NCBI GenBank assembly: GCA_048886185.1
Contig: JBHLKY010000001.1
Location: 30,001 to 62,000, forward strand
DNA from: Candidatus Hermodarchaeota archaeon
GTDB taxonomy: Archaea > Asgardarchaeota > Heimdallarchaeia > Hodarchaeales > Hodarchaeaceae
Direction of reading: 5' to 3'
DNA length: 32,000 bases
The position numbers were made by a program, and so were the translations under genes. Under the pieces are notes generated by a model that did no database searches, was not told where the DNA came from, and saw nothing but the letters and a program-made list of their open reading frames with translations. Shown here in pieces: positions 7,049 to 30,154 of this stretch; the first letter of the stretch is position 1, and each line of letters starts with the position of its first letter.

Positions 7049-8221
7049 TTGATCAGTTTTAGTTTAACAGATGATCAGAAGAAGCTCCAGTTGAAAGCTC
7101 GTGAATTTGCTATTAATGAGATTATTCCTGTTTCTAGAAGATATGATCAAACTGGAGAATTCCCACTTGAAGTTCTTCAAAGAGCTTTTGATCAAGGGTT
7201 GATGAATACTATCTTTCCGAAGGAAATCGGAGGTCCAGGATTAGGCATACTTGACACTTGTTTGATTGTTGAGGAAACAGCTGCAGCGGATCCTGGTATC
7301 ACAACAAGTCTTTTTGATAATTGCTTGGGAGCTGAACCTATTTTATTAGGAGGAACAACAGAACAAAAAGAACGTTTTCTTAAACCACTAACTGAGAACT
7401 TAAAATTTATTGCTTTTGCAACTAGTGAACCAGGCATGGGATCTGATGTGGCTGGAATAGCAATGGCTGCTCGGTTAGAAGGTGATGAGATCGTCCTAAA
7501 TGGTCGAAAGATGTGGATCACCAATGGAGGTGTTGCCTCTCTAATGAGTACATTCTGTCGTTTGGAAGGAACTAAGAGGCATAATGGTATCACTGGGGTA
7601 GTGGTTCCTATGAATTTGGAAGGAATAAGAGTTGGGAAACCTATCCCAAAAATGGGTCATAAAGCATCAAATACTGTAATGGTTCGTTTTGAAGAAGTGC
7701 GTGTTCCAAAAGAAAATATTCTTGGTGAACCTGGAAAGGGTTTCCCAATTGCTATGCAAACTTTTGCTCATACTCGTCCTACAATTGGAGCATTCGCATG
7801 TGGGATGGCAAGAGCATGTATGGATTATGCAATTGCCTACGCAAAGCGTCGAGAAGCTTTTGAAAGTAAAATTGCAGATTTTCAAGCTATTCAATTCATG
7901 GTTGCTGACATGAAAATGAACGTAGATGCAGCACGTTTATTAACATGGAAAGCTGCATGGGAAGCGGACCAAGGAAGAGATAATACTATCTCAGCAAGTA
8001 TAGCTAAAGCCTTTGCCACTGATCATGGAATGAAAACAGCATCAGATGCGTTACAGATATTTGGAGGTTATGGTTATACAACAAATTATTTGATTGAAAA
8101 GCTCTTCAGAGATGCCAAGTTATATCAAATATATGAGGGTACTTCTCAAATTCAGAGAATGATTGTCGGTCGCTATTTATTTTCAAAATATAAACCAATT
8201 TTCGACAAGTCTTTTACATAG
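7049..8221 (+). CDS. Acyl-CoA dehydrogenase (short/medium-chain type)
   Basis: ATSEPGMGSDV, NGRKMWITNG, QIFGGYGY and IYEGTSQIQ with the catalytic Glu; TTG start. Confidence 0.95.
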   Translation: MISFSLTDDQKKLQLKAREFAINEIIPVSRRYDQTGEFPLEVLQRAFDQGLMNTIFPKEIGGPGLGILDTCLIVEETAAADPGITTSLFDNCLGAEPILLGGTTEQKERFLKPLTENLKFIAFATSEPGMGSDVAGIAMAARLEGDEIVLNGRKMWITNGGVASLMSTFCRLEGTKRHNGITGVVVPMNLEGIRVGKPIPKMGHKASNTVMVRFEEVRVPKENILGEPGKGFPIAMQTFAHTRPTIGAFACGMARACMDYAIAYAKRREAFESKIADFQAIQFMVADMKMNVDAARLLTWKAAWEADQGRDNTISASIAKAFATDHGMKTASDALQIFGGYGYTTNYLIEKLFRDAKLYQIYEGTSQIQRMIVGRYLFSKYKPIFDKSFT

Positions 8222-8343
8222 ATTCTTTAAAACCTGGTAATTTTTCATAAAAGTTGATATATTGAATAAAAAAGAGAGATGAATATTTTAAAGGGCAGAA
8301 AGATCTTTTTCTAGAATCTGATTTGAAAGGAGAAAAATAAAAG

Positions 8344-8928
8344 ATGAATAAGACGATACAAAACTTAGCAAAAGCGTTAATAGGCGAAAGTCAGGCAAGA
8401 AACCGGTATACATTCTATTCTAAGATTGCCCAAAAAGAAGGTTACCAACAAATCGCTGATATCTTTCTTATCACTGCTGATAATGAAAGAGAACATGCCA
8501 AATGGTTATTAAGGATGATTAATCAGTTGAAAAAGAATATTGACAAAGATCTCGATGAAATAACTGTTGATGGTGTTGTCCCTACAACACTAGGAGATAC
8601 TGAAGAGAATCTTAGGGCTGCAATTGCAGGAGAACATTATGAAAGAGAAACAATGTATCCAGAATTCGCGAAGGTTGCTAAGGAAGAAGGATTCTATGAT
8701 ATTGCCACTAGATTGAAAGCAATAAGCGTGGCTGAAGAACATCATGAGAATAGGTTCACGAAAATACTTACTGAATTAGAAAACAATACGGTTTTCAAGA
8801 AAAAAGGGAAGGTTAATTGGATCTGCAAGAAATGCGGGTATGTTCATGAAGGTGACACTCCTCCTAATGAATGTCCAAGTTGTAGTCATCCTAGTAATTA
8901 CTTCGAACTGATGTGTGAAGAATATTAA
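8344..8928 (+). CDS. rbr: Rubrerythrin
   Basis: GESQARNRY, EREHAK, GEHYE and EEHHE di-iron motifs; C-terminal CKKCGY...CPSC rubredoxin-like site. Confidence 0.96.
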   Translation: MNKTIQNLAKALIGESQARNRYTFYSKIAQKEGYQQIADIFLITADNEREHAKWLLRMINQLKKNIDKDLDEITVDGVVPTTLGDTEENLRAAIAGEHYERETMYPEFAKVAKEEGFYDIATRLKAISVAEEHHENRFTKILTELENNTVFKKKGKVNWICKKCGYVHEGDTPPNECPSCSHPSNYFELMCEEY

Positions 8929-9037
8929 ATTTGAGTCAAGAACAGAGCTAATATCCCTTACCATTCAATACCCATTATTTCTTTTTAATGTGTAGAAACC
9001 TTCTCTTAGAAGAAACTGTGCAGATGGTGGTAATTAA

Positions 9038-10117
9038 ATGGCCTTAATGTTTGAACAATTAAATCCTCATGCTTGTCTTACATATTTAGTAAGAAATGAT
9101 AGTTCAAATGAAATTATTTTAATTGATCCTGTCTTAGATCATGTTAAAGATTACTTAGATGTCTTAAAAAAACAAAAATTAAAATTAACATATGTTATTG
9201 ATACTCATACCCATGCAGATCACATTTCTGGAGCTGCAGCTATTAAAGATCATACTGATTGTCAGTATATTATGCATGAAAAAGCTCCTGCTAAATGTGT
9301 GACTATTCATGTAAACGATGGTGATGAACTAAGTTTTTTAGACATTAAAGTGAAAATCATTCATACACCTGGCCATACGAAAGACTCAATCTGCCTTGTG
9401 TTCTCCGATAGAATTTTCACTGGTGATGTGTTATTTCTGGATGAAGGTGGGGCTGGAAGAGATGATTTACCTGGAGGAGATCCTGCAGAACATTATGATA
9501 GTCTTCAGAAGCTTTTAGAATTACCTGATCATTTGATCGTTTTTCCTGCTCATGAATATCGAGGGAACCAACCATCGAGTCTTGCTCATCAGAAAGAAAG
9601 TAATCCACACTTAAAATCCCGTACACGAGAGAAATTTGTGCAATATTTAGAAGATTTAAAGCTGGGCCCTGCTGATTGGATGAATGATGTTTTAAAATCA
9701 AATTATGCGTGTGCAAGGAATCCTGGAGATGTTTGGATACCAGTTGATTCACCTGCGTGTGAAGTAAAGGGTACTTTAGAAATTGGTGTTAATGAACAGG
9801 TGGTCTCCTCATTAACTGTTCATGAACTGAAGAATAGAATGGATGGAAAACAGGTTCCTTTAATGATAGATGTACGGGAAAAACATGAATTAAATGGTCC
9901 ACTTGGTCATTTACAGGGTATTAAACACATACCTTTAGCTCATTTGATATCAAACCTTGAGAAGTTATCTAGTCTGAAAGATCAAGAAATCATCTTGATT
10001 TGTCGTAGTGGAGCTAGAGCTCATACTGCTGCACAAATAATGCAGAAGAAAGAATTCTCTAAGGTATTTGTTTTGGAAGGCGGAATGAAGGCTTGGAAAA
10101 ATTTGACAGATAATTGA
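9038..10117 (+). CDS. MBL-fold persulfide dioxygenase (ETHE1/PDO-like)-rhodanese fusion
   Basis: THTHADHISG, HTPGHT, FTGD and PAHEY, followed by a rhodanese domain IDVRE...ICRSGARA...LEGGMKAW. Confidence 0.85.
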   Translation: MALMFEQLNPHACLTYLVRNDSSNEIILIDPVLDHVKDYLDVLKKQKLKLTYVIDTHTHADHISGAAAIKDHTDCQYIMHEKAPAKCVTIHVNDGDELSFLDIKVKIIHTPGHTKDSICLVFSDRIFTGDVLFLDEGGAGRDDLPGGDPAEHYDSLQKLLELPDHLIVFPAHEYRGNQPSSLAHQKESNPHLKSRTREKFVQYLEDLKLGPADWMNDVLKSNYACARNPGDVWIPVDSPACEVKGTLEIGVNEQVVSSLTVHELKNRMDGKQVPLMIDVREKHELNGPLGHLQGIKHIPLAHLISNLEKLSSLKDQEIILICRSGARAHTAAQIMQKKEFSKVFVLEGGMKAWKNLTDN

Positions 10118-10141
10118 ATCTTTCCGAAGGGAAATAATTTT

Positions 10142-11101
10142 ATGAATGATCGGAAGAGATACCCTACTGAAGAGGTTGAGCCAGAGAATTTCTTAGATAA
10201 TGATGAAGTAATGAACCTTTTAGAAACTCAAAAAAATTATAAATTTAAACAAGAAGATTACCTGATACTATTAAACTGTGTTCATTGTAACGCTTGTGGA
10301 ACCTCGGAAGAACGATGTCAGCTCAATCATAAATTTTTGGAGGATGGAAATAAAATCGAGGGCCTTGATGAGATGATTGCGAGTTTCGAGAAATTTCGAA
10401 CTCCCTATTCAACTGATAAAATGCGAATCAGAAGACCTGAGGGTATTCCTAGAGAAAGTAATACTCTCTATTATATGGGCTGCTTATCCACTATTCGAGT
10501 TCCAAGATATACTGAAAATTCGTTAATTTACCTTTTAAAGCAAAATATTGACTTTACAATTTTAGACAAAGAGATTTGTTGTGGCTATCCGTTATATGTC
10601 TCTGGTGAATTCAAAGGGTATGAAAGATGTAAAGAAGAGAATATTGAAATATTCAATAATTTTAAGAAAGTCATTTGTGCATGTCCAGCATGTTACTATG
10701 TATTCAAAAACAATTATCAAGAGGAAATGACCGCAGAAATCACATTTGTTGTAGATTATCTTAAACCTGCAGACACAAAAAAATCAGGTAGCATAGCAAT
10801 TCAACATCTCTGTCAACTCATGAATCGGGGGCATCCTGAAGTCACTTCCTTTGTAAATGATATATTACGAGAATCAGGTTACAAGGTACTTGATATTCCG
10901 CACTGGTGTTGTGGAGGGGGTATTGGATATATGCATAGGTTAGATATTATCGAGAAAATCGCGAGGAAACGTATGGGAGATTTCCAAGAAGGGGATTATT
11001 GTACAACATATTGTGTTTCGTGCTGGTGGATTCTCTCTCGTTTTGGACGAAAATATGACATCAAACCTAAACCTAAAGACATTTTTGAGCTATTAATGTG
11101 A
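10142..11101 (+). CDS. (Fe-S)-binding protein with a CxxCxxC motif and two CCG domains (HdrB/HdrD/GlpC-like)
   Basis: CVHCNAC......C; YMGC, ICCGYP, CPAC; HLC, CCGGG, YCVSC. Confidence 0.8.
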   Translation: MNDRKRYPTEEVEPENFLDNDEVMNLLETQKNYKFKQEDYLILLNCVHCNACGTSEERCQLNHKFLEDGNKIEGLDEMIASFEKFRTPYSTDKMRIRRPEGIPRESNTLYYMGCLSTIRVPRYTENSLIYLLKQNIDFTILDKEICCGYPLYVSGEFKGYERCKEENIEIFNNFKKVICACPACYYVFKNNYQEEMTAEITFVVDYLKPADTKKSGSIAIQHLCQLMNRGHPEVTSFVNDILRESGYKVLDIPHWCCGGGIGYMHRLDIIEKIARKRMGDFQEGDYCTTYCVSCWWILSRFGRKYDIKPKPKDIFELLM

Positions 11102-11153: not shown

Positions 11154-11819
11154 CTAATTACCTTGTTTTATACATAAGAAAAAGCCTAGATCTTTTAAAA
11201 ATTTGAATTCCCTAAGAATCAAAAAATTAGCAGCGATAAGACTTTGAGTGAATATATCCCAAGTAAACCGTGCTTTTTTCGGATGACTTACTTTCAAATA
11301 TCTTTCAAACCAGTTTAAAGATCTGGCACTAATTTCGTTAATTAATAGTAATCCTTTAGGTTTTAAAACCCTATTGATCTCTTTTAACGCATTTGGCCAT
11401 TCCTCGATGTGGTGGAGAACTGTGAACGCAAAGACAGCATCAAATCGATTTGAAGGAAGTTTAGTTTCTTTTACATCTGCTAAAAAAACATTGACGGGGA
11501 TTTGCCTCTTTTTTACTTTAGTAAATGATAATAAGACCATTTTTGGATCTATGTCAAATGCATAATAGATTTTAGGCTTGAAAGTTTTATAAATCTGTTC
11601 TATTCCATATCCAGCTCCGCATCCTACCTCCAAAATATTTTTCCCAGTTAAATCGAAATTACTCGATTTTATAAAAGATTTAAAGACCTTTAATTCAAAG
11701 AAAGACAGCATTAACTTCTTAAAAGGACTGACCATTAATTTTTCTTCTAAATGATTTAGATTTAGTCCTTTATTTCTGACTTTATCAAATTTTTTATTAT
11801 TTTTATCTTCCAAATCCAA
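11154..11819 (-). CDS. Class I SAM-dependent methyltransferase (UbiE/MenG-like fold)
   Basis: ILEVGCGAG, AFDID, FDAVFAFTVLHH, VLKPKG; TTG start after GGAG. Confidence 0.88.
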   Translation of the reverse strand: MDLEDKNNKKFDKVRNKGLNLNHLEEKLMVSPFKKLMLSFFELKVFKSFIKSSNFDLTGKNILEVGCGAGYGIEQIYKTFKPKIYYAFDIDPKMVLLSFTKVKKRQIPVNVFLADVKETKLPSNRFDAVFAFTVLHHIEEWPNALKEINRVLKPKGLLLINEISARSLNWFERYLKVSHPKKARFTWDIFTQSLIAANFLILREFKFLKDLGFFLCIKQGN

Positions 11820-12035: not shown

Positions 12036-12794
12036 TTGGTTACTAATTTAGAGAATGTTGATGTGAAAAATGAAGTATCGAATAATCAAAAAATAATTGG
12101 CTTTGTCAGGTTAGCTAGACCTCAATTTCTCTTGGCTTATTTAATTGTTGGTACAGGTGGATTGGTCGTCGGAGCTCAACAAGGATTTGATGTTGATTTA
12201 TTTGTCGCTATTTATTCTATTATGGTTGTCCTTATTTCAGCAATTGGTGTTCATTATCGGGATGAAGCAGGGGACTGGGCTGCTGGTTATGATCATGAAT
12301 ATGGTGGAATGGGGGTCATTAGAGAAGGTACAATCAGTGAAAATACCGTTCGACTCTTAGGTCGGATCATTAGTTTTATCACAATAATACTGGGAATAAT
12401 CCAGGCATTTTACCTTTTTTTATCAAAGAACCAACCAATCTTACTTATTATAGGTGTGCCAATTTTTTTTATGATAGTCTTCGTTAATTACTTAACAGAA
12501 GAGATCCCTCTTGGCCACGAGATTATTACAGCAGGTTCTTATTTCGCAACTTTTTATTGGATATACTTAGCTCAAACGTGGAACGTCACAACATCCATGG
12601 TTTTCTTCTCAATTTTCGTTTACCTAATTGTATTCGCTCTCATCCCATATCAAGACATTGGAGATGTGAAAGTAGATACAAAAACTGGCAAAAAAACATT
12701 GACTCGAAAATTAGGAATAGATGGGGTCGGTCAATTATCAATCTTTATAGGATTAATCTCAATTGTATTCTTATATCTCGCATTATTAGCTTAA
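12036..12794 (+). CDS. UbiA-family prenyltransferase (MenA-like)
   Basis: RLARP, Asp-rich motifs HYRDEAGD and QDIGDVKVD..GKKTL, multiple TM helices; GGTGA RBS. Confidence 0.8.
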   Translation: MVTNLENVDVKNEVSNNQKIIGFVRLARPQFLLAYLIVGTGGLVVGAQQGFDVDLFVAIYSIMVVLISAIGVHYRDEAGDWAAGYDHEYGGMGVIREGTISENTVRLLGRIISFITIILGIIQAFYLFLSKNQPILLIIGVPIFFMIVFVNYLTEEIPLGHEIITAGSYFATFYWIYLAQTWNVTTSMVFFSIFVYLIVFALIPYQDIGDVKVDTKTGKKTLTRKLGIDGVGQLSIFIGLISIVFLYLALLA

Positions 12795-12838: not shown

Positions 12839-13420
12839 ATGATAAAAAATAATACAAAATATGAAATCTGTCGTGTGTGTGGATATGTTCGACCAGTGGG
12901 AAAAGGAGGAAGATGCCCAGCTTGTGGTGTCAGAGACACTGCCTTTGTCCCTTTTCAACATAAAGCCTCCCTTAGAAGGCGTATGTTTCTGAAACTGGAC
13001 GTGCATCCTGTTGCAGTCCACTTTACAATTACTTACACAGCTGTAACAGCTTTCTTCTTCTTTTTCTTATTGTTTAGTGATAATTTACTTGGAGTTCCTA
13101 TCCAAGGTATCTTAGATCTTCAAATCACCTTCCTTCCTTTATTGATTACATCTGGCGGAATAACTGGACTTATCGATGGCAAGGTAAGATTCCGGAAAAT
13201 CAAAACTCCTTTTCTTTTGAGGAAAATTGTACTGGGGTGTACTCTCCTAGTGACTTCTATATTTCTATTACTAATACATATCATTAATCAAAGTGATACT
13301 TCTTTTCTATTAATTGAAGCTTGTTTAATATTACTAACTTTTATTCTTGCAAGTTATCTTGGATGGATTGGTGCAGAATTGATTTGTCCAATTGTTCCAA
13401 TAGGAAAAATTGAATCTTGA
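12839..13420 (+). CDS. Rubredoxin-like domain fused to a DUF2231-like 4-TM membrane domain
   Basis: CRVCGY...CPACG, then HPVAVHF, GGITGLIDG and GWIGAEL with four hydrophobic segments. Confidence 0.75.
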   Translation: MIKNNTKYEICRVCGYVRPVGKGGRCPACGVRDTAFVPFQHKASLRRRMFLKLDVHPVAVHFTITYTAVTAFFFFFLLFSDNLLGVPIQGILDLQITFLPLLITSGGITGLIDGKVRFRKIKTPFLLRKIVLGCTLLVTSIFLLLIHIINQSDTSFLLIEACLILLTFILASYLGWIGAELICPIVPIGKIES

Positions 13421-14902: not shown

Positions 14903-15241
14903 TTAATGGCCTATGTGAAGCAAGGTCCCGATTAGCGGAATAAGTACAACTGGAAGGGCTATCAATAGCGGAACACCGAAAACAACACCATAAATCAATT
15001 TTGATCTAGTTTGATATTTGATTCCCATGAAAAAAGCCGCAACCAGATAAGCCTTTGCCAACGCAAGCACAATCAATCCAATACGAATTAGAAATTGCAA
15101 ATCAGTTTGACCAAGTACGTTTTCACTACTAATGCTGAGAGTAACCTCAAGAATTGTGAAGAATCCAAGCAATAATACAATGTAGTTATATGGGCGTTTC
15201 TCTTCATCAAACTTTTGTACTTCTTCTTGTTTATCTGCCAT
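14903..15241 (-). CDS. Heme-copper oxidase subunit IV (COX4_pro-like)
   Basis: Three TM helices, TILEV and LAKAYLVAAFFM motif; 10 bp downstream of subunit I. Confidence 0.8.
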   Translation of the reverse strand: MADKQEEVQKFDEEKRPYNYIVLLLGFFTILEVTLSISSENVLGQTDLQFLIRIGLIVLALAKAYLVAAFFMGIKYQTRSKLIYGVVFGVPLLIALPVVLIPLIGTLLHIGH

Positions 15242-15251
15242 TAAAAAAACC

Positions 15252-16805
15252 TCAAGATCCTTCTGATATTGTATTCGAATCTTTTTCAGATATCATAAGT
15301 CCGAATGGATCTTCTTTGGCTGGTTCTTTTCGTATAAACAAGCTAAAGAAAATATTAAATAGAAATACAGTAACAGAGAATGCCATTAACAGTGCTCCGA
15401 TAGTAGCAATCATGTGCCAAAACGCGTATAAATCTACAATGAGGAAAGTGGAATAATCAAAATACCGTCGTGGCATACCAAGTAATCCAACGATCATCAT
15501 TGCAAAGAAAGTAACAATAACCCCAATAATCCATGAAAAACAATGAATCCAAGCTAGAGTGCGCTGATACATCTTTCCAGTCATTTCAGGAAAGAAATTA
15601 TAGAAACTGCCTAAGATTGCTGTTACCGCTCCACCAATGATTATAAGATGAAAATGACCTACTACGAAGTATGTATCGTGGACTACAATATCAATTGGAA
15701 TGATGTTAAGCCACACCCCAGTAATTCCACCAATAACAAAGCCTATAATAAAACCTAAGGGGAACACAAGAGGTACCTCAAACTTAATACGACCTCCCCA
15801 CATTGTTAATAACCAGTTGAATGTCTTAATTCCTGAAGGTACAGCAATTATAAAAGTTAAAAAGTTAAAGAAAGCGGTTGTAATAGCATCAGATGAGGCG
15901 CCATATATTGTGTATTGATGATGGCCCCATACAAAGAACCCTAGAACTGTTATCATTATCATAGAAGCAACCATGGATTTGTAACCAAATATTTCATTAC
16001 GAGAGAATTTAGCCACCAATAGGGACATCAATCCAAAGGCAGGGAGTATCATGATATAAACAGCGGGGTGAGAGTAGCTCCAGAACACATGTTGCCACAG
16101 AAAAGCCCCTGCTCCAGATCCGAGAGCTGAATAAAAAGTTGTGCCAAGTATCCTATCAGATAATAGAAAAGTGAGACCTGTGGTAATTAGGGGGATCGCT
16201 AAAAATTGCATGATTGCTGCTAAAAGGATGGACCAACTAAAAAGATCAAGGTCTAGCCACTGAAGTCCTTCCCGTCTCATAGTAGCTATGGTAATGATAA
16301 AGTTTATTGAAGACACAAGAGAGGAAATACCAGCTATTAAGACACCCACAATCCAAGTATTTACACCAATGCCAAATCCTTCTAAAGAAAGAGGTGTGTA
16401 AAGCGTCCACCCGACTGAGGTCTCACCTAAATAAAGTAAGAAACTAGCAGGTAATAACATCCAGAATGCACCATTATTCCACCGGGGCCAGTACATATCC
16501 TTTGCGCCAATGAGTGTTGGTACAAGAAAATTACCAAAACCAACCCCTAGAGGAAAAATAACAAGGAAGATCATTGTTGTTCCATGAGCAGTAAATATAA
16601 TGGAATACATCTCTTCATTAACAATTGTAGGACCAGGAAAAGCGAGCTCTATGCGGATTATAAGGGCCAATAACCCTGATATGACGAAATTTATTAAGGA
16701 AAAGGCAATGTAAAGCTTTCCGATGTCTTTGTGGTTGGTTGTTCCAAAAAATCGTATAATTCTTTTGGTCAAGGAATCTTTGGATACAGCTAAGGTTTCA
16801 GACAT
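15252..16805 (-). CDS. coxA: Heme-copper oxygen reductase subunit I, A2 type
   Basis: NHKDIG (D-channel Asp), TAHG, FWSYSHPAVY (His-Tyr with YS motif), WGHH, SGIK (K-channel Lys), HDTYFVVGHFH, GMPRRY; GGTGA RBS favours start at 16805. Confidence 0.96.
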   Translation of the reverse strand: MSETLAVSKDSLTKRIIRFFGTTNHKDIGKLYIAFSLINFVISGLLALIIRIELAFPGPTIVNEEMYSIIFTAHGTTMIFLVIFPLGVGFGNFLVPTLIGAKDMYWPRWNNGAFWMLLPASFLLYLGETSVGWTLYTPLSLEGFGIGVNTWIVGVLIAGISSLVSSINFIITIATMRREGLQWLDLDLFSWSILLAAIMQFLAIPLITTGLTFLLSDRILGTTFYSALGSGAGAFLWQHVFWSYSHPAVYIMILPAFGLMSLLVAKFSRNEIFGYKSMVASMIMITVLGFFVWGHHQYTIYGASSDAITTAFFNFLTFIIAVPSGIKTFNWLLTMWGGRIKFEVPLVFPLGFIIGFVIGGITGVWLNIIPIDIVVHDTYFVVGHFHLIIIGGAVTAILGSFYNFFPEMTGKMYQRTLAWIHCFSWIIGVIVTFFAMMIVGLLGMPRRYFDYSTFLIVDLYAFWHMIATIGALLMAFSVTVFLFNIFFSLFIRKEPAKEDPFGLMISEKDSNTISEGS

Positions 16806-16816
16806 ATTTTTCACCA

Positions 16817-17464
16817 TCATGTTACTATGATCTTTGCTTTCATTGAATAATGTCCAAAGCCACAATATTCAGCGCAATGAACTTCATATACCCCTGGGTT
16901 AGGAATTTGAACATAAATGATATTATGCCTCCCTGGGATCATATCTAATTTTATGGAGAGTTCATGAACAAAGAAACTGTGAATCACATCAATTGAAGTA
17001 ATATTAAACTTGTAAAGCTTATCAACCTCCAGATATAGCACACCTATTGTACTAGTTCCGTCTTCTCTTACGAATGTAAAATTATATTTGTACGCTATGA
17101 CTAATATTTGCTCATCATAGTCTGGATATTCTGTAAGATAACTTTGAGTAACTGGAAGACTGGATAGGAAAAGAATGCTTACAATTACAGATGCAAAAAT
17201 TATCCAAATAACTTCCACACGTAATTGATTTTGTATCTTTTTTCGAGGGGTTTTAGATGACTCCCTAAACCGAAACACGATATAACCTAATAGAATAAAA
17301 ACAATAACTGCAATTAAAAGAGAAAAAAATAAAACTATAGCCAGGAGATATTGAACTTGCGGTGTATAAACAGCATTTTGAGGAGTAGCAGAAATTTGAA
17401 CAGGATTTGTTAAAATTATTAAAGAAAAGATGGCCAAAAACAAGAATTTTATCAGTTTTTTCAT
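16817..17464 (-). CDS. coxB: Heme-copper oxidase subunit II with a CuA site
   Basis: Leader plus two TM helices; DVIHSF and CAEYCGFGHYSM give the complete CuA ligand set; no fused CxxCH domain. Confidence 0.95.
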   Translation of the reverse strand: MKKLIKFLFLAIFSLIILTNPVQISATPQNAVYTPQVQYLLAIVLFFSLLIAVIVFILLGYIVFRFRESSKTPRKKIQNQLRVEVIWIIFASVIVSILFLSSLPVTQSYLTEYPDYDEQILVIAYKYNFTFVREDGTSTIGVLYLEVDKLYKFNITSIDVIHSFFVHELSIKLDMIPGRHNIIYVQIPNPGVYEVHCAEYCGFGHYSMKAKIIVT

Positions 17465-17483
17465 GATTTTGTACTTCCGTTGT

Positions 17484-18917
17484 TTAAATCAAATACACTA
17501 ACGTAAAGAGAATGATCCAGACTAAATCTACAAAATGCCAATAAATTCCTACAAGTTCAACACCTGTATGGTTTTCTTGAGAAAATCCACCTTGGTATGC
17601 TCTTAAAGTCATGAAGAGTACGAGAAGAACACCGAAAAAGACATGTGCTCCATGAAGACCTGTTTGGATATAAAATGTTGAGCTAAATAGATTGAGATCT
17701 GGAGTGAATCCCTCATGGAATAACGAAAAGTACTCTATTACTTGAATACTTAGAAATATTGATCCAAAAAGGAAAGTGAGGAAAAGAAAGTTACTTAATC
17801 TTTTTTGATTTCCATTTTGTATTCCCTCAACAGCTTTCACTAGGGTGAAACTGCTTACTATTAGAATAAACGTGTTGATGGCCGTTAATGGGACATTTAG
17901 TATAGATCCTGGGACGGGCCAATCTTCACTAGCAATTCGGAAAGCAAAACTTGTCCCAATAACCATTGTGAAAATGATAACTTCTGAAGCCAAAAATAAC
18001 CATATCCAAGATCCTTTTGTTTTAAATAAGTTTTGAGAATATGTTTCTTTGAAAATAAATGATATGAGCAGTATAAAGAACACCCAAAGGAATGCAAATC
18101 CAGCAAAAACTTCTTTTTGAGCAATTAACAATATTCCCCATGCTAATAATCCAGTGCTGATTGCCAGTACTGGTGGCCAAAGAGTTATTTCATGCTCATC
18201 TTGATCTTCAGTTTCAACTTCTAATCTCAAAGGTTTTCTTAAGAATCCACCCATCACAGTTAATATCAGTATTATAACCGAAGCTAATACTATTACTGAG
18301 AATAAATCTCCTGTACCTTGAGGGAGAAGCATGGCTAAGATAGGTACATCAGTGACTAAAGTACCCCCATACACAAGAATAGCTCCCGCGCCTGCAACAA
18401 TTGTGAATATTAAATATCCTATGGCTTGACTAGAAATATATACTAGTTGAAACAGAATGTTTTGGTCATATATCCTTTCATGACGATAGTTTACAAAATA
18501 AATTCTGAATATACCTGCATAGATAAAGAAAGAAGTTCCATAAATTGCGTATATGACTTTAAAAGATAGAATTTCGCTTCGACTTGCTGCATCAATACCA
18601 AGCCATATGGTTTCAAGACTAATATGGGCGAGACCTATATTTCCAGAAGCATCTAAAATACCCGCAGCCATTGCTACGAATAAACTCAATAATCCAGAAG
18701 TTAAACACACAAATGCAACAAACTCAAACTTGTCTGAATAGATTTTTAGAGTCTGTAGATCAACAGAAATTTTACGTTGAGATTCACGAGATAAAGTTCT
18801 TTTTAAGAAATCAGATTTGATGAGCATTGATAAACTAAATGCAATAAGGTTGGTAAGAAGACTAAAAGCAAGAAGAGCTACATGAAAATGAAGGACAATA
18901 GGGTGAAGTTCTGCCAT
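17484..18917 (-). CDS. coxC: Heme-copper oxidase subunit III with an approximately 240-aa N-terminal DUF2231-like membrane extension
   Basis: C-terminal part has WLFLASE, NTFILIVSS, TGLHGAHV and YWHFVDLVW; N-terminal part has HPIVLHF, AAGILDA and GAGAILVY. Confidence 0.88.
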   Translation of the reverse strand: MAELHPIVLHFHVALLAFSLLTNLIAFSLSMLIKSDFLKRTLSRESQRKISVDLQTLKIYSDKFEFVAFVCLTSGLLSLFVAMAAGILDASGNIGLAHISLETIWLGIDAASRSEILSFKVIYAIYGTSFFIYAGIFRIYFVNYRHERIYDQNILFQLVYISSQAIGYLIFTIVAGAGAILVYGGTLVTDVPILAMLLPQGTGDLFSVIVLASVIILILTVMGGFLRKPLRLEVETEDQDEHEITLWPPVLAISTGLLAWGILLIAQKEVFAGFAFLWVFFILLISFIFKETYSQNLFKTKGSWIWLFLASEVIIFTMVIGTSFAFRIASEDWPVPGSILNVPLTAINTFILIVSSFTLVKAVEGIQNGNQKRLSNFLFLTFLFGSIFLSIQVIEYFSLFHEGFTPDLNLFSSTFYIQTGLHGAHVFFGVLLVLFMTLRAYQGGFSQENHTGVELVGIYWHFVDLVWIILFTLVYLI

Positions 18918-18922
18918 TATTC

Positions 18923-19699
18923 TTATTCTCCTTCCAACAACGGTTTATTTTCTGCTTTTTGGTGTCTTCGCCCAAAACTGTCTACAAAAATCATTAATCC
19001 TATAAGACTAAACGAAAGAGAAATTCCAAGAATCATTGGGGAAAGAAAGTCAGCGCGATAAGTGTTAATTCCAGTAAGAAAGAATTCAAATGATCCTCTT
19101 TCAATATGAGATGAAGTAAAATCATCAGATGATCCTAGGGCCCACAACATTTTCACTTTTCCTGAAGTAGGAATAGATTTATCATATTCATCACCTGTTG
19201 TTAACAGCCTCTTGAACTCAAAGGTTGTAATCTCATTTAATTCTGTCCCGTTGAAGTCCACGATATCATTAGTTCCTCCAAGATCCAAATCTGGAGGATG
19301 AGGTCCAAACTGACCAATTGAAAACGTATCCATGGCAAAAACACCAGTACTGTTCACCCACCCGAATATCATATCAGCATCCTGCATAGCAAACGTCGGG
19401 CCTATACCAATTGCCACCCATCCTACAGTTTTGGCACGTATAGCAATATAAATATCACTATCATTTACTTCCCAAAATAAAGAATAGTCCTCTGAAATTT
19501 GATGGGAATAAATATATTCTTCATCTGAAATGACTCCATCTAATTTGTTTTCTTCTCCTTGAGTATGTTTTCCAACTACTCCCATTGTTAAAAAGAAAGC
19601 AGTCAATAATAAAACAAGCATAAAAGGATTTATGGATTTCACTAGGGCGGTTCCAGACCACTTAAGTAGTATTTTAGATGAAGATACTTTCAAACCCAT
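18923..19699 (-). CDS. Membrane-anchored DOMON-domain protein (putative heme b, Met/His)
   Basis: LFW, GWVAIG, AMQDADM, FKRLLTTGD..D, LWALG and SSHIERG; hydrophobic N- and C-terminal segments; 5-bp gap to coxC. Confidence 0.82.
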   Translation of the reverse strand: MGLKVSSSKILLKWSGTALVKSINPFMLVLLLTAFFLTMGVVGKHTQGEENKLDGVISDEEYIYSHQISEDYSLFWEVNDSDIYIAIRAKTVGWVAIGIGPTFAMQDADMIFGWVNSTGVFAMDTFSIGQFGPHPPDLDLGGTNDIVDFNGTELNEITTFEFKRLLTTGDEYDKSIPTSGKVKMLWALGSSDDFTSSHIERGSFEFFLTGINTYRADFLSPMILGISLSFSLIGLMIFVDSFGRRHQKAENKPLLEGE

Positions 19700-19836: not shown

Positions 19837-20907
19837 TTAGTAAATTTCTTGACCAGCTTCCTCTATTTTCCCACTAAATAGTTTATAGACAAATGCTGTA
19901 TAGACTAAGACTAGAGGGAGCGCTATTAAGGCAATTACAAGCATTATAAATAATCCAAGAACTGATGCTGAAGTGTTATGGATAGTAAGACTATAACTAG
20001 CGTTTATTGATGAGAATACGAGATTTGGATAAACTGCTACACCTGCTCCAAAGATACTGAGAGCAATTGAAATAGCTGACAAGATAAAAGTGCGAATTGG
20101 GTCAGCATCAGTCCACACATGCCACAAAGTACCAAGTATTGCTAAAAATCCGAGTATTGGAATCATTAAAAGAAGAGGGTTTGCTAAGAAATTGTCAAGA
20201 ATGTGATCATGTAATAAAATACTAATAACCAAGGAACTACTTGAACAAGCAAGGAATGTTATTATTCCTACTTTGGCCCATTGGGTAGTTTTTTTCTGAA
20301 GTCTTCCAGTTGTCCTTACGCGGAGATAGATAGCACCATGAGTAATGATTATTGTTAGAGATAACAGTCCAATTAAGAGGGCATATGGGTTGACCAAAGA
20401 GAGTAATTCGCCAGTAAAGGTTTTATTTCCATCAATAGGGATGCCTTGTACTAAATTTCCAACTACAACACCAAAAGATAATGCAGGAACCAAACTTCCG
20501 ATGACAAATGCAATATCGGTGATTTTATGCCATAGAGATGAATCAAATTCCTCATGGAATTCAATAGATGTTGCGCGCAAGATTAAGCAAAGGACAACCA
20601 AAATCAATGGGAGATAGAATGCGCTAAAAACGGTAGCGTAGACATCAGGAAATGCAGCAAACAGAATTCCTCCAGCAGCTATCAACCAGACCTCATTCCC
20701 ATCCCAAAACGGCGCAATGGTCTGTAAGAGTATTTTCCTGTCATTTCTTGTGATCTTTTCGTCTCTTTCTCGTGTAAAAAAGAACCAAAATCCTACTCCT
20801 AGGTCAAATCCATCTAGGATCACATATATGATTACAATGATTGCTAAGACAATAAACCAAATATCCTGCAGTAAAGATATTTCAATTAGTCCTTGATGAA
20901 GACTCAA
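19837..20907 (-). CDS. cydB: Cytochrome bd quinol oxidase subunit II
   Basis: LDGFDLGVG, PFWDGNEVWL, LRATSIEFH; TTG start overlaps the cydA stop. Confidence 0.95.
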   Translation of the reverse strand: MSLHQGLIEISLLQDIWFIVLAIIVIIYVILDGFDLGVGFWFFFTRERDEKITRNDRKILLQTIAPFWDGNEVWLIAAGGILFAAFPDVYATVFSAFYLPLILVVLCLILRATSIEFHEEFDSSLWHKITDIAFVIGSLVPALSFGVVVGNLVQGIPIDGNKTFTGELLSLVNPYALLIGLLSLTIIITHGAIYLRVRTTGRLQKKTTQWAKVGIITFLACSSSSLVISILLHDHILDNFLANPLLLMIPILGFLAILGTLWHVWTDADPIRTFILSAISIALSIFGAGVAVYPNLVFSSINASYSLTIHNTSASVLGLFIMLVIALIALPLVLVYTAFVYKLFSGKIEEAGQEIY

Positions 20908-22256
20908 TTGTGTACCTCCAGGCCAATTGGTCCTTTTCGAATTATCCGTATCATTATTAGAATCCAGATTACAGTGAGAATGATATATGTCGTTAAAAAG
21001 AGAATCAATGACATTAGAACTTGGTCTGCTGGGACGACAGTTGACACTCCATCAGCGGTTCTCATGACACCTTGCACTATCCACGGTTGGCGGCCTACTT
21101 CTGTGGTTACCCAACCCAGTTCATTAGCCAGTATTGGAAGTGGAAGACAGAGAGTAGCTAATCGAAGATACCATTTTCTGTAAATCCAATTATTGTCAAA
21201 TAATTTCTTTCTCCAGAGAAGTATTACCCCAAAGACGGAGACAAATATGAGAATTCCACCTAAAATCACCATACCATGAAAAGAATAAAAAGTAAGCATG
21301 ATTGGAGGTGTATCAGGGGATAAATCATTTAATCCAATTACTGTGGCATTCGGGTTCCCGAGAAGTATGCTTAGAAGAGGAAAGTCTAAAAGTCCAAAAA
21401 TTGAAGAATCGATTTGGAAGAGAATTCCTGTTTCATCAAGGATAGCAAAAATAATTAGTGGAACACCGCTTTCTGTCTCAAAAATTCCTTCTTGAGCAGC
21501 AAACTTCGCTGGTTGATATTCAGCAACCATGGTTGAGTTCCAGTGGCCAAGGACAATCTGAAACAGAGATAGAATAACGCCAACCATAAGAGCGATCTTT
21601 ATTGAGTCCTGAGCAACTTGAGTATGCCTATTCTTCAACAAATAATATGCGCTCACTCCTATTATGAAAAAAGATCCCGTCAGTAGACAAGCATTGATTG
21701 TATGAAAGAAACGAGGAAATGTTGATGGAGTAATTACAGCTTGCCAAAAATCAGTTAATACTGCTCTGCCTCCTTCTATTGCAAATCCTCTAGGTGTATG
21801 CATCCAAGAACCAGCGCTCAGAATCCAGAATGCAGACATAACTGAACCAATTGCCACCATAAGAGAGGAGAACCACAGCACTTTATCAGAGATTCGCTCA
21901 CTTTTCCATCCCTGAAGCATAATCCCTAGGAAAACTGATTCAAGAAAGAAAGCGAAAAACACTTCTAATGTCAACATACTACCAAACACGCCGCCTACAA
22001 AGCGTGCAAACTCACTCCAATTGGTTCCAAAGCTAAATTCCATTACAATACCCGTAGGGATTCCAATTGCTACTGTAGTAGCCAATAATTTTACCCAGAA
22101 CCATGAAAGATCCTTATAGTAAGTATTTTTAGTTTTCATATATTTAGTCATAAAATAAACTATAAACCATGCTAAACCTATTGTGATCGGGGGGAAAATA
22201 AAGTGATACCCGATAGTCAACCAGAATTGGATTTTTGCAAGCGATAGTGCATCCAT
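20904..22256 (-). CDS. cydA: Cytochrome bd quinol oxidase subunit I (short Q-loop)
   Basis: YHFIFPP (heme b595 His), EFSFGTNW, EVFFAFFLES, RFFH, QPAKFAAQEG, HGM, GWVTTEVGRQPW. Confidence 0.96.
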   Translation of the reverse strand: MDALSLAKIQFWLTIGYHFIFPPITIGLAWFIVYFMTKYMKTKNTYYKDLSWFWVKLLATTVAIGIPTGIVMEFSFGTNWSEFARFVGGVFGSMLTLEVFFAFFLESVFLGIMLQGWKSERISDKVLWFSSLMVAIGSVMSAFWILSAGSWMHTPRGFAIEGGRAVLTDFWQAVITPSTFPRFFHTINACLLTGSFFIIGVSAYYLLKNRHTQVAQDSIKIALMVGVILSLFQIVLGHWNSTMVAEYQPAKFAAQEGIFETESGVPLIIFAILDETGILFQIDSSIFGLLDFPLLSILLGNPNATVIGLNDLSPDTPPIMLTFYSFHGMVILGGILIFVSVFGVILLWRKKLFDNNWIYRKWYLRLATLCLPLPILANELGWVTTEVGRQPWIVQGVMRTADGVSTVVPADQVLMSLILFLTTYIILTVIWILIMIRIIRKGPIGLEVHN

Positions 22257-28967: not shown

Positions 28968-30154
28968 GATTGACTCAACACGTTGTTAATTACCAGGTGT
29001 TTACTCAGATAAAAGAGCTGGGAGCTTTTGATGTTACCGCTTGCATGAATTGTGGTTTGTGCACTGTTACATGTCCTCTTTCTGTTACTGGGAACGAATT
29101 TCCCAGGATATTGATAAGGTATGCTGTTTTAGGCTTGGAAGAAAAACTATTATCTCACCCAGAACCTTGGTTATGCTACTACTGTGGAGACTGTTCAACA
29201 ACTTGTCCAAGCCAAGCTCAACCTGGCGAATTTTTGATGGCAACACGTCGGTACCTTACTTCAAGGTATGACTGGACTGGTCTATCTAAGAAATTTTATT
29301 TGTCGAAAAAATGGGAATTTGGAGCTCTCATTGGACTAGCACTTTTAATTCTTGGTGTCTTCGTTGTCGCAACTCTAGCAGGTATAAGTGAAATGAAAAC
29401 TGATGGTGTTTCAATCGATTCTTTCGCTCCAATAGAGTGGATACACCTTGGAGATCTTGTGTTATTAGGCGTCTTATCAACTCTCCTCCTCTCAAATGCT
29501 TTTAGAATGTTTTATTATATTATGTTAAAAGATGATAATGTGAAAGTTCCATTTAAGCTCTATATAACAGAAATAGGGGCGTATTTAAAATTTACGTTTA
29601 GTGTTTTGACTCAATATCGATGGGCCATTTGTGATAGCAAATGGCGATGGATTAAACACCTGATTCTTGTATCAGGATATATTATAATGTTTACTTTGGT
29701 GATTGTTTTCCTTAAAAATCCCTTCGTAGGTTTAGATTGGTTCCCAGCAAAATTGTTACCCTTGATACCAGAGCTTCAGATAGATGATACCACATGGCAT
29801 TGGACATCAGTTCTGGGCTATTATGGAACAGCAGCACTCCTTTTCGTGACACTTGAGTCAATGTGGAGTCGTTATAAGAAAAGCGAGGAAATCCATAAGT
29901 TTTCACATTCATCAGATTGGCTATTCTTAGCCTTGTTGTTCCTTACTGCTGTAACAGGAATCCTACTTCATCTATTCAGGCTTATGAATTTAACCTATCC
30001 CAGTTATTTTATCTATGTGATCCATCTCATGATCGCTGGTCCCATGTTGATAGTGGAAGTTCCATTTGGGAAATGGTCTCATATGCTCTATAGACCTCTA
30101 GCAATTTATTGTGCAACAGTAAAGGAAAAAGCTAGGTTATTAGCTGGGTCTTAA
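28964..30154 (+). CDS. QmoC-like protein: HdrC-type 2x[4Fe-4S] domain plus NarI/HdrE-like heme-b membrane domain
   Basis: CMNCGLCTVTCP and CYYCGDCSTTCP; TM region with His in IKHLIL, LLHLFR, VIHLMI and FGKWSHMLYRP. Confidence 0.85.
   Translation: MRLTQHVVNYQVFTQIKELGAFDVTACMNCGLCTVTCPLSVTGNEFPRILIRYAVLGLEEKLLSHPEPWLCYYCGDCSTTCPSQAQPGEFLMATRRYLTSRYDWTGLSKKFYLSKKWEFGALIGLALLILGVFVVATLAGISEMKTDGVSIDSFAPIEWIHLGDLVLLGVLSTLLLSNAFRMFYYIMLKDDNVKVPFKLYITEIGAYLKFTFSVLTQYRWAICDSKWRWIKHLILVSGYIIMFTLVIVFLKNPFVGLDWFPAKLLPLIPELQIDDTTWHWTSVLGYYGTAALLFVTLESMWSRYKKSEEIHKFSHSSDWLFLALLFLTAVTGILLHLFRLMNLTYPSYFIYVIHLMIAGPMLIVEVPFGKWSHMLYRPLAIYCATVKEKARLLAGS

Follow-up and report, generated by a model that had tools for sequence, protein, structure and literature searches.

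The Sulfolobus SoxABCD complex is a CuA-bearing haem-copper oxidase in which electrons enter through a hard-wired membrane subunit, with no soluble carrier. A built-in donor is also present in caa3-type A2 oxidases, such as that of Thermus (PDB 2YEV), where it is a haem c domain on subunit II. Here we describe an operon for a CuA oxidase whose candidate donor is a DOMON domain, predicted to bind haem b and to be held at subunit III. The operon lies at positions 14903-19699 of a 32,000-nucleotide stretch of DNA, referred to below as the window, which corresponds to positions 30,001 to 62,000 of contig JBHLKY010000001.1 (C1:30001-62000) in the genome of a Candidatus Hermodarchaeota archaeon (assembly GCA_048886185.1, handle G000; 4.84 Mb in 75 contigs, 96% complete). 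Close homologues of the window's proteins carry the names Hodarchaeales, Heimdallarchaeota or Promethearchaeota. We give about an even chance to the reading that this A2 oxidase uses the haem b of the DOMON protein as its CuA donor, in place of cytochrome c.

In the Sulfolobus complex, the subunit SoxC is a cytochrome b homologue, whereas the corresponding family (PF00033) is absent here from the organism's own genome and from its whole genus. A SoxABCD-type or bc-linked supercomplex has a cytochrome b and/or a Rieske partner, and neither was found in the genome; the NrfD-like quinol-oxidising subunit of alternative complex III is also absent from it. The caa3-type oxidases share the A2 motif of subunit I with this enzyme, and among solved structures 2YEV matches CoxII best, but their donor is the haem c domain, whereas no CxxCH motif occurs in any of the five operon proteins. 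CYBDOM proteins likewise have an outer-face haem-b DOMON domain wired to a membrane domain, an arrangement that is predicted here, although their membrane partner is cytochrome b561. The membrane domain in this operon is DUF2231-like instead, lacks the four-His pattern of a two-haem protein and has conserved residues at the outer face only. The cytochrome domain of cellobiose dehydrogenase (CDH) also offers a comparison, because its DOMON-fold haem b, with Met/His ligands, gives one electron to copper on another protein, LPMO. However, CDH is a secreted fungal enzyme with no sequence-level relation to the DOMON protein described here, and the fold match was obtained with Foldseek.

Seven genes follow one another on the minus strand, in the order cydA, cydB, DOMON, DUF2231-like::CoxIII, CoxII, CoxI and CoxIV; all coordinates given for these genes refer to this strand. 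According to the coordinates, the five genes from DOMON to CoxIV are separated by gaps of 5, 19, 11 and 10 bp. A TATA-like box, TTTATAAT (19733-19726, minus strand), is located ~30 nucleotides before the DOMON ATG at 19699, within the 137-bp gap that follows cydB, and a 17-nucleotide T-rich run, TTTTATTTTTTTATTTT (14885-14869, minus strand), which resembles archaeal terminators, stands directly 3' of the CoxIV stop codon. Judging from their sequences, the first may act as the promoter of the operon and the second as its terminator. An earlier first-pass annotation, made from the DNA letters alone, had proposed the tight packing of the five genes, the TATA-like box and the terminator-like T-run, and each of these was confirmed at its position. 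No RNA run containing this stretch is listed, although sediment and estuary metagenome runs do contain its DNA.

CoxI (15252-16805) matches Pfam COX1 (PF00115) over the full profile with an E-value of 1.2e-134 and is the sole COX1 protein in the genome. The motifs TAHG, HPAVY, GHH and HDTYFVVGHFH, which hold the haem and CuB histidine ligands of the COX1 family, can be read in it, as can WSYSHPAVY in helix VI, NHKDIG and SGIK. We take YSHPxV in place of GHPEV to be the A2 signature, and NHKDIG and SGIK presumably supply the D-channel Asp and the K-channel Lys. CoxII (16817-17464; Pfam COX2 and COX2_TM) has a complete set of CuA ligands, H162...C197-x-E-x-C201-G-x-x-H205-x-x-M208, including E199, and this region aligns with the CuA regions of the Thermus and Rhodobacter subunits II. 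The motif could be read directly, as in the first-pass annotation, which had described a subunit II with full CuA and without CxxCH. The remaining core subunits are the canonical seven-helix CoxIII part of the fused subunit III (17484-18182), recognized by Pfam COX3 and by alignment, and the prokaryotic subunit IV (CoxIV, 14903-15241; Pfam COX4_pro, E 1.7e-7). The operon encodes an intact A2-type haem-copper oxygen reductase. Subunit II of bo3-type quinol oxidases, in contrast, is without CuA ligands.

Tyr127 of CoxII occupies the position of the electron-entry Trp in the R. sphaeroides protein. The aromatic motifs near CuA (residues 125-131 and 162-166) have no Trp left: YKYNFTF takes the place of the R. 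sphaeroides motif YQWYWGY, to which the electron-entry Trp belongs, and HSFF that of HSFW in Thermus. This Trp-less motif is kept in an orthologue of the same family (L010) and not in a CoxII from another family (L015), which has YQFGWDF.

Related oxidases have been described in two preprints. Appler et al. (bioRxiv 10.1101/2024.07.04.601786) reported Complex IV operons of the same type in Hodarchaeales and Kariarchaeaceae, mentioned DOMON neighbours, and routed electrons through QcrABC and cytochrome c. Their scheme contains no mention of the DUF2231-like extension, of the pairing between DOMON and subunit III, or of a genus without complex III. In a later study (bioRxiv 10.1101/2025.11.07.685452), Hodarchaeales cyoABCD genes were expressed in E. 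coli without the DOMON gene, and ubiquinol-oxidase activity but no cytochrome c oxidase activity was observed. That enzyme is orthologous to the present one; despite its conserved CuA ligands, the authors treated it as a "typical" quinol oxidase of the E. coli kind, and they mentioned neither the DOMON protein nor the extension of subunit III. The first-pass annotation had regarded the whole arrangement as undescribed, which is outdated on account of the DOMON neighbours in the first of these reports and the quinol-oxidase activity in the second. As far as we have searched, the DUF2231-like fusion, its conserved pairing with DOMON and the predicted docking of the two are new, whereas the DOMON neighbour was already published.

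The observation that the recombinant enzyme does not oxidize cytochrome c agrees with the view that this is not a cytochrome c oxidase. The same experiment speaks for an alternative in which the four core subunits form a self-sufficient quinol oxidase and the DOMON/DUF2231-like pair is accessory, acting as an optional second input, as a regulator, or in protecting the outer face against reactive oxygen species. An accessory role is also suggested by the location of DOMON paralogues and bacterial relatives near genes for superoxide reductase, rubrerythrin, superoxide dismutase and MsrP-like proteins. We nevertheless consider this alternative unlikely. With its CuA site intact, the enzyme should take electrons from a one-electron donor on the outer face, and both the tight coupling within the operon and the fusion to subunit III favour a fixed part of the enzyme. 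The residues that form the quinol site in subunit I of bo3-type enzymes appear to be absent, which would also count against self-sufficiency. The published assay used crude solubilized E. coli membranes, had background activity from E. coli and found residual activity in a catalytic mutant (bioRxiv 10.1101/2025.11.07.685452).

The DOMON protein (18923-19699; 258 amino acids) matches Pfam DOMON (PF03351) with an E-value of 7e-27 and a score of 94.5 bits, compared with a cut-off of 32.7. It consists of an N-terminal hydrophobic segment that is either a signal or an anchor, an extracytoplasmic beta-sandwich at residues ~55-213, and a C-terminal membrane helix at residues ~217-243, whose sequence (GLLIFVDSFGR) is kept among orthologues linked to cox genes. 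A sequence search against solved structures gave no match. The AlphaFold2 model, however, is a confident beta-sandwich with a predicted local distance difference test (pLDDT) value >90 across the domain, and Foldseek matches it to the DOMON domain of dopamine beta-hydroxylase (DBH), to the cytochrome b domains of pyranose dehydrogenase (PDH) and CDH, and to the haem b-binding gamma subunit of ethylbenzene dehydrogenase (EBDH); the E-values for DBH, PDH and CDH range from 1.6e-6 to 1e-4. M105, H134 (in the motif GPHPPD) and H198 are invariant in an alignment of 24 DOMON homologues. M105 and H198, at ~31% and ~90% of the domain length, resemble M65 and H163 of CDH when compared by relative position only; these two residues are the Met/His pair of the CDH cytochrome domain. 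Relatives at 35-46% identity (P0018, P0021, P0024, P0029 and P0030) are fused to cytochrome b561 (PF03188), a domain that does not occur in this DOMON polypeptide, where DOMON is the only Pfam domain found. Taken together, these features suggest that the protein binds haem b.

Some relatives of the DOMON protein are found in other genetic contexts. A 245-amino-acid paralogue in L030 (CP070695.1) lies between an acyl-CoA dehydrogenase gene and a run of rubrerythrin, persulfide dioxygenase-rhodanese and CCG protein genes; the same run is present in the window at 7049-11101, but without a DOMON paralogue. Bacterial relatives at L028:1418-3316, which is Chloroflexi by name, and at L029:6001-7612 are followed by an 80-amino-acid open reading frame (ORF) and then by an MsrP-like Oxidored_molyb gene. 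The MsrP-like gene is followed by a short Ni_hydr_CYTB gene in L028, and in L029 superoxide dismutase, desulfoferrodoxin and rubrerythrin genes are situated around the group.

Subunit III is a fusion protein of 477 amino acids (17484-18917), of which residues 305-476 match COX3 (Pfam E 1.7e-23). Its first 245 residues (18183-18917) form a separate domain with five membrane helices, which AlphaFold2 models as a bundle of four helices accompanied by a fifth (pLDDT 89). The label DUF2231 (PF09990), given to this extension in the first-pass annotation, is weak for the protein itself, which scores 15.7 bits (E 0.016), under the gathering cut-off of 26.4 bits, but holds at the level of the family. 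An orthologous fusion, P0077, reaches 31.3 bits, and 11 of 24 relatives of the extension match DUF2231 at E-values up to 0.05, so the extension is best seen as a branch of DUF2231 that has diverged. Conserved forms of the fusion make up 27 protein clusters, whose sources, if they give a name, say Hodarchaeales or Kariarchaeaceae, and an exhaustive search of the extension yielded 19 representative clusters in total, including stand-alone forms of ~190-260 amino acids. The possibility that the extension is a duplicate of CoxIII helices was rejected (hhalign probability 0.2%). A Foldseek search of the domain against the PDB returned nothing at E-values up to 0.001, an ESM Atlas search returned no named match, and a literature search within one library found no functional description of DUF2231, only an unrelated database paper. 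Directly upstream of P0078, a stand-alone homologue of the extension, is a gene for a 239-amino-acid protein (L012:6268-6987) that matches Reeler weakly (E 0.027) and does not match DOMON in a profile comparison. Animal ferric reductases combine Reeler domains with DOMON and cytochrome b561.

Across the fused and free forms of the extension, H5, H10, G86, A90, K120 and G178 do not vary, and D89 is almost invariant. The loops carry 11 Lys and Arg residues on the inside and 1 on the outside; this, together with the requirement that the N-terminus of CoxIII be delivered to the cytoplasm, indicates an N-out topology for the extension, which in turn places H5, H10, D89 and K120 at the outer face. 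The conserved outer-face His/His/Asp could bind metal, which raises the possibility that the DOMON/DUF2231-like pair is a maturation device, either a cupric or ferric reductase at the outer face or a means of handing over metal or haem, that would work with SCO1 in assembling CuA and CuB. Metal reductases are known among eukaryotic DOMON-b561 proteins, and related operons have SCO1 and UbiA genes at their flanks. We consider such a role unlikely, however, since covalent fusion to a structural subunit would provide one permanent copy per enzyme, not a usual property of assembly factors, and since the pair is also found without cox genes.

The DOMON gene is directly upstream of DUF2231-like::CoxIII in 11 loci (G000, G048, G049, G053, G054, G056, G063, G067, L010, L011 and L031), as checked by coordinates or gene tables. 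The first-pass annotation had set conservation of DOMON beside cox genes in relatives as a test of its proposal, and such conservation is what we find. Another family has a split form (L015, which is G033:C57), in which DOMON is followed by a stand-alone DUF2231-like gene and then by CoxII and CoxI. Between that stand-alone gene and an O-methyltransferase gene, ahead of CoxII and CoxI, the same locus encodes a 533-amino-acid protein without a Pfam match (L015:1504-3105). A profile of the membrane domain has 25 matches in the 83 genomes of the class, and 16 of these, from four families, are within ~6 kb of a DOMON match; by our own estimate, chance would account for such proximity in ~1-2 per hundred cases, and the related genomes are not independent.

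Some DOMON/DUF2231-like pairs of another family (L016 and L017) are distant from cox genes and occur with multi-domain DOMON surface proteins of 900 amino acids, which implies that the pairing is older and wider than its link to the oxidase. These distant pairs are compatible with a conduit that operates independently of the oxidase, carrying electrons outward from quinol to an acceptor outside the cell, or in reverse, and that merely shares the oxidase regulon. In this lineage, however, the membrane partner is fused to CoxIII and is thereby tied to the oxidase, and we regard an independent conduit as quite unlikely. G056 (L009, CP070760.1), a closed genome of a relative, retains DOMON and DUF2231-like::CoxIII as intact ORFs, although CoxI and CoxIV are missing, cydA is broken into two pieces far apart, and CoxII ends just before the first CuA His. 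We considered an independent function of the two proteins in G056, where they occur without CoxI, and rejected it because the split cydA, the cut CoxII and the missing CoxI indicate decay of the operon.

A complex was predicted between the DOMON protein, as partner, and the whole fusion protein, with haem included and our own alignments supplied. The interface score ipSAE was 0.70 (0.71, 0.69 and 0.70 in individual runs), compared with 0.00 for the best of three controls. Of 80 solved complexes, 58 reach the mark used for this score, as do 2 of 110 mismatched pairs; these counts are approximate here, given the supplied alignments and ligand. At least 77% of contacts are shared among the runs, and partner pLDDT is at least 68. 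The confident contacts join the C-terminal helix of DOMON (residues 213-247) to the second CoxIII helix and to extension helices 3 and 5. The model thus supports binding of DOMON to the fusion protein as a fixed subunit. Of the interface between DOMON and the oxidase that was anticipated in the first-pass annotation, a physical association through the membrane helix is supported by modelling; the confident contact does not involve the DOMON head.

The usual donors to CuA were looked for in the organism's own genome. Rieske proteins (PF00355), PF00127 cupredoxins, class I cytochromes c (PF00034 and PF13442) and NrfD (PF03916) are all without a match there, and Cupredoxin_1 has none besides CoxII itself. 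Cytochrome b (PF00033) has no match in this genome or in any of the 22 from the genus, and is found in only 5 of the 83 genomes of the class. Among the families searched, the usual donors are missing from the genome as a whole, and cytochrome b is missing throughout the genus. Within the genus, NrfD occurs only in G061 and G062, where an NrfD-family gene is within 2-3 kb of a gene for a 575-amino-acid double-DOMON protein (G061:C16:24017-27604 and G062:C5:222107-225703); Ccm genes are on the same contig in G061. The CoxI genes of these two genomes, with 52% identity to the present one, each contain one in-frame stop codon (TAA in G061 and TAG in G062).

The window contains no ORF of at least 60 amino acids with a CxxCH motif, so the earlier statement that c-type cytochromes are missing is true of the window. 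It does not extend to the genome. A full CcmB-A-C-E-F cluster with a hexahaem cytochrome c gene is located on the same contig, ~28-40 kb from the operon (G000:C1:7434-16678, L024), and a second hexahaem cytochrome c gene occurs with a second CcmF-like gene elsewhere (G000:C54:415-6487, L025). The C54 cytochrome has a weak match to cytochrome c552, and in both sets a gene for a GlcNAc-2-epimerase/GH76-like protein of 720-740 amino acids separates the cytochrome from CcmF. CuA might accordingly be reduced by a multihaem cytochrome c, one of which is encoded only ~28 kb away, or by an unrecognized soluble carrier, with DOMON irrelevant to the main path. We judge this very unlikely, because Ccm is present in 18 of the 22 genomes of the genus regardless of CoxI, because no quinol-oxidizing partner (cytochrome b, Rieske protein or NrfD) was found, and because no class I cytochrome c was found. 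Several of the 18 genomes are without CoxI, and Ccm therefore does not track the oxidase. The cytochrome-c-independent input proposed in the first-pass annotation is not proven, in view of the Ccm genes and the two hexahaem cytochromes.

In the mechanism that we propose, the DOMON protein would be a membrane-anchored protein of the outer face, with the Met/His pair of haem-b DOMON relatives, and would constitute a fifth, fixed subunit of the oxidase, anchored to DUF2231-like::CoxIII by its C-terminal helix. Electrons would ultimately come from the quinol pool, which the cell can be expected to have since a cytochrome bd quinol oxidase is encoded next door. The candidate site of quinol oxidation is the outer-face His/His/Asp/Lys cluster of the DUF2231-like domain, which would be directly under the DOMON head. 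Electrons would then pass from the outer-face haem b of DOMON to CuA, to the low-spin haem and to the binuclear centre. The individual steps differ in plausibility. Transfer of electrons from DOMON to CuA is the best reading, at about even odds. Oxidation of quinol by the DUF2231-like domain is speculative, and we consider it doubtful. More generally, and just as tentatively, DUF2231 might be a membrane module, so far unrecognized, for electron exchange between the quinone pool and a peripheral one-electron redox domain that docks on its conserved His/His/Asp/Lys face; in Hodarchaeales, the CoxIII fusion and a haem-b DOMON would make the oxidase a self-contained quinol:O2 oxidoreductase, with CuA retained and with no need for complex III or cytochrome c.

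Several observations weigh against DOMON as the donor, or against quinol oxidation by its membrane partner. The DOMON head is left unplaced in the predicted complex, where the only confident contact is that of the membrane helix, and the linker from the head to this helix is short. To our knowledge, subunits II and III are not in contact in solved A-type oxidases, so the distance from the haem to CuA may be too long. No cofactor or quinol-site signature was recognized in the DUF2231-like domain, which has only two invariant His residues, both in helix 1, and its fold matched no known quinol site. VIA-align related this domain to generic four-helix bundles only, among them CoxIII bundles, cytochrome b6 and designed haem binders, with Z-scores up to 10.8, a value below the level that is meaningful for helical bundles. 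The module is not oxidase-specific, since pairs occur away from cox genes, and the genome does encode Ccm and two hexahaem cytochromes c. Finally, the activity of the recombinant cyoABCD enzyme without DOMON is mild evidence against DOMON being indispensable.

The genes upstream of the oxidase operon are cydA (20904-22256) and cydB (19837-20907), which encode the cytochrome bd quinol oxidase; the latter is separated from the DOMON gene by the 137-bp gap. The order in which cydA and cydB precede the oxidase genes recurs in G067 and, in decayed form, in G056. On the other side of the operon, a UbiA-family prenyltransferase (12036-12794, plus strand), which scores below the Pfam cut-off, is a candidate haem O synthase, and UbiA genes also flank the cox clusters in L010 and L031. 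A UbiE-type methyltransferase (11154-11819, minus strand) flanks the cluster together with UbiA, as it does in L010. Haem A synthase (PF02628) has no match in the genome, but the Sulfolobus control likewise gave none, so this result carries little weight.

A further neighbour of the oxidase cluster (12839-13420, plus strand) encodes a 193-amino-acid protein with an N-terminal CxxC...CxxC ribbon, four membrane helices and the motif HPVAVHF. Three divergent Asgard loci (the window, L031:516-1097 and L010:14151-14741) have conserved proteins of this kind, 193-196 amino acids in length, encoded beside the oxidase cluster, with 42-54% identity and the motifs HPVxxHF, GLxDxK, KIxLG and GWxG. These polar motifs would face the cytoplasm beside the ribbon, on the side opposite to that of the extension of CoxIII. 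Homology between the ribbon protein and the extension was considered and is not established, as hhalign matched only an 18-residue HPxxxHF motif, with a probability of 5.9%, and the Pfam DUF2231 match has an E-value of 0.88. The ribbon protein is genomic context rather than a demonstrated part of the enzyme.

No known archaea are closer to eukaryotes than the Hodarchaeales, and there is debate over whether these organisms respire oxygen and, if so, by what route. A DOMON protein held on subunit III through a DUF2231-like domain would be a concrete answer to how electrons enter the Hodarchaeales oxidase. If this is true, it would also provide the first function for DUF2231, a widespread domain of unknown function.

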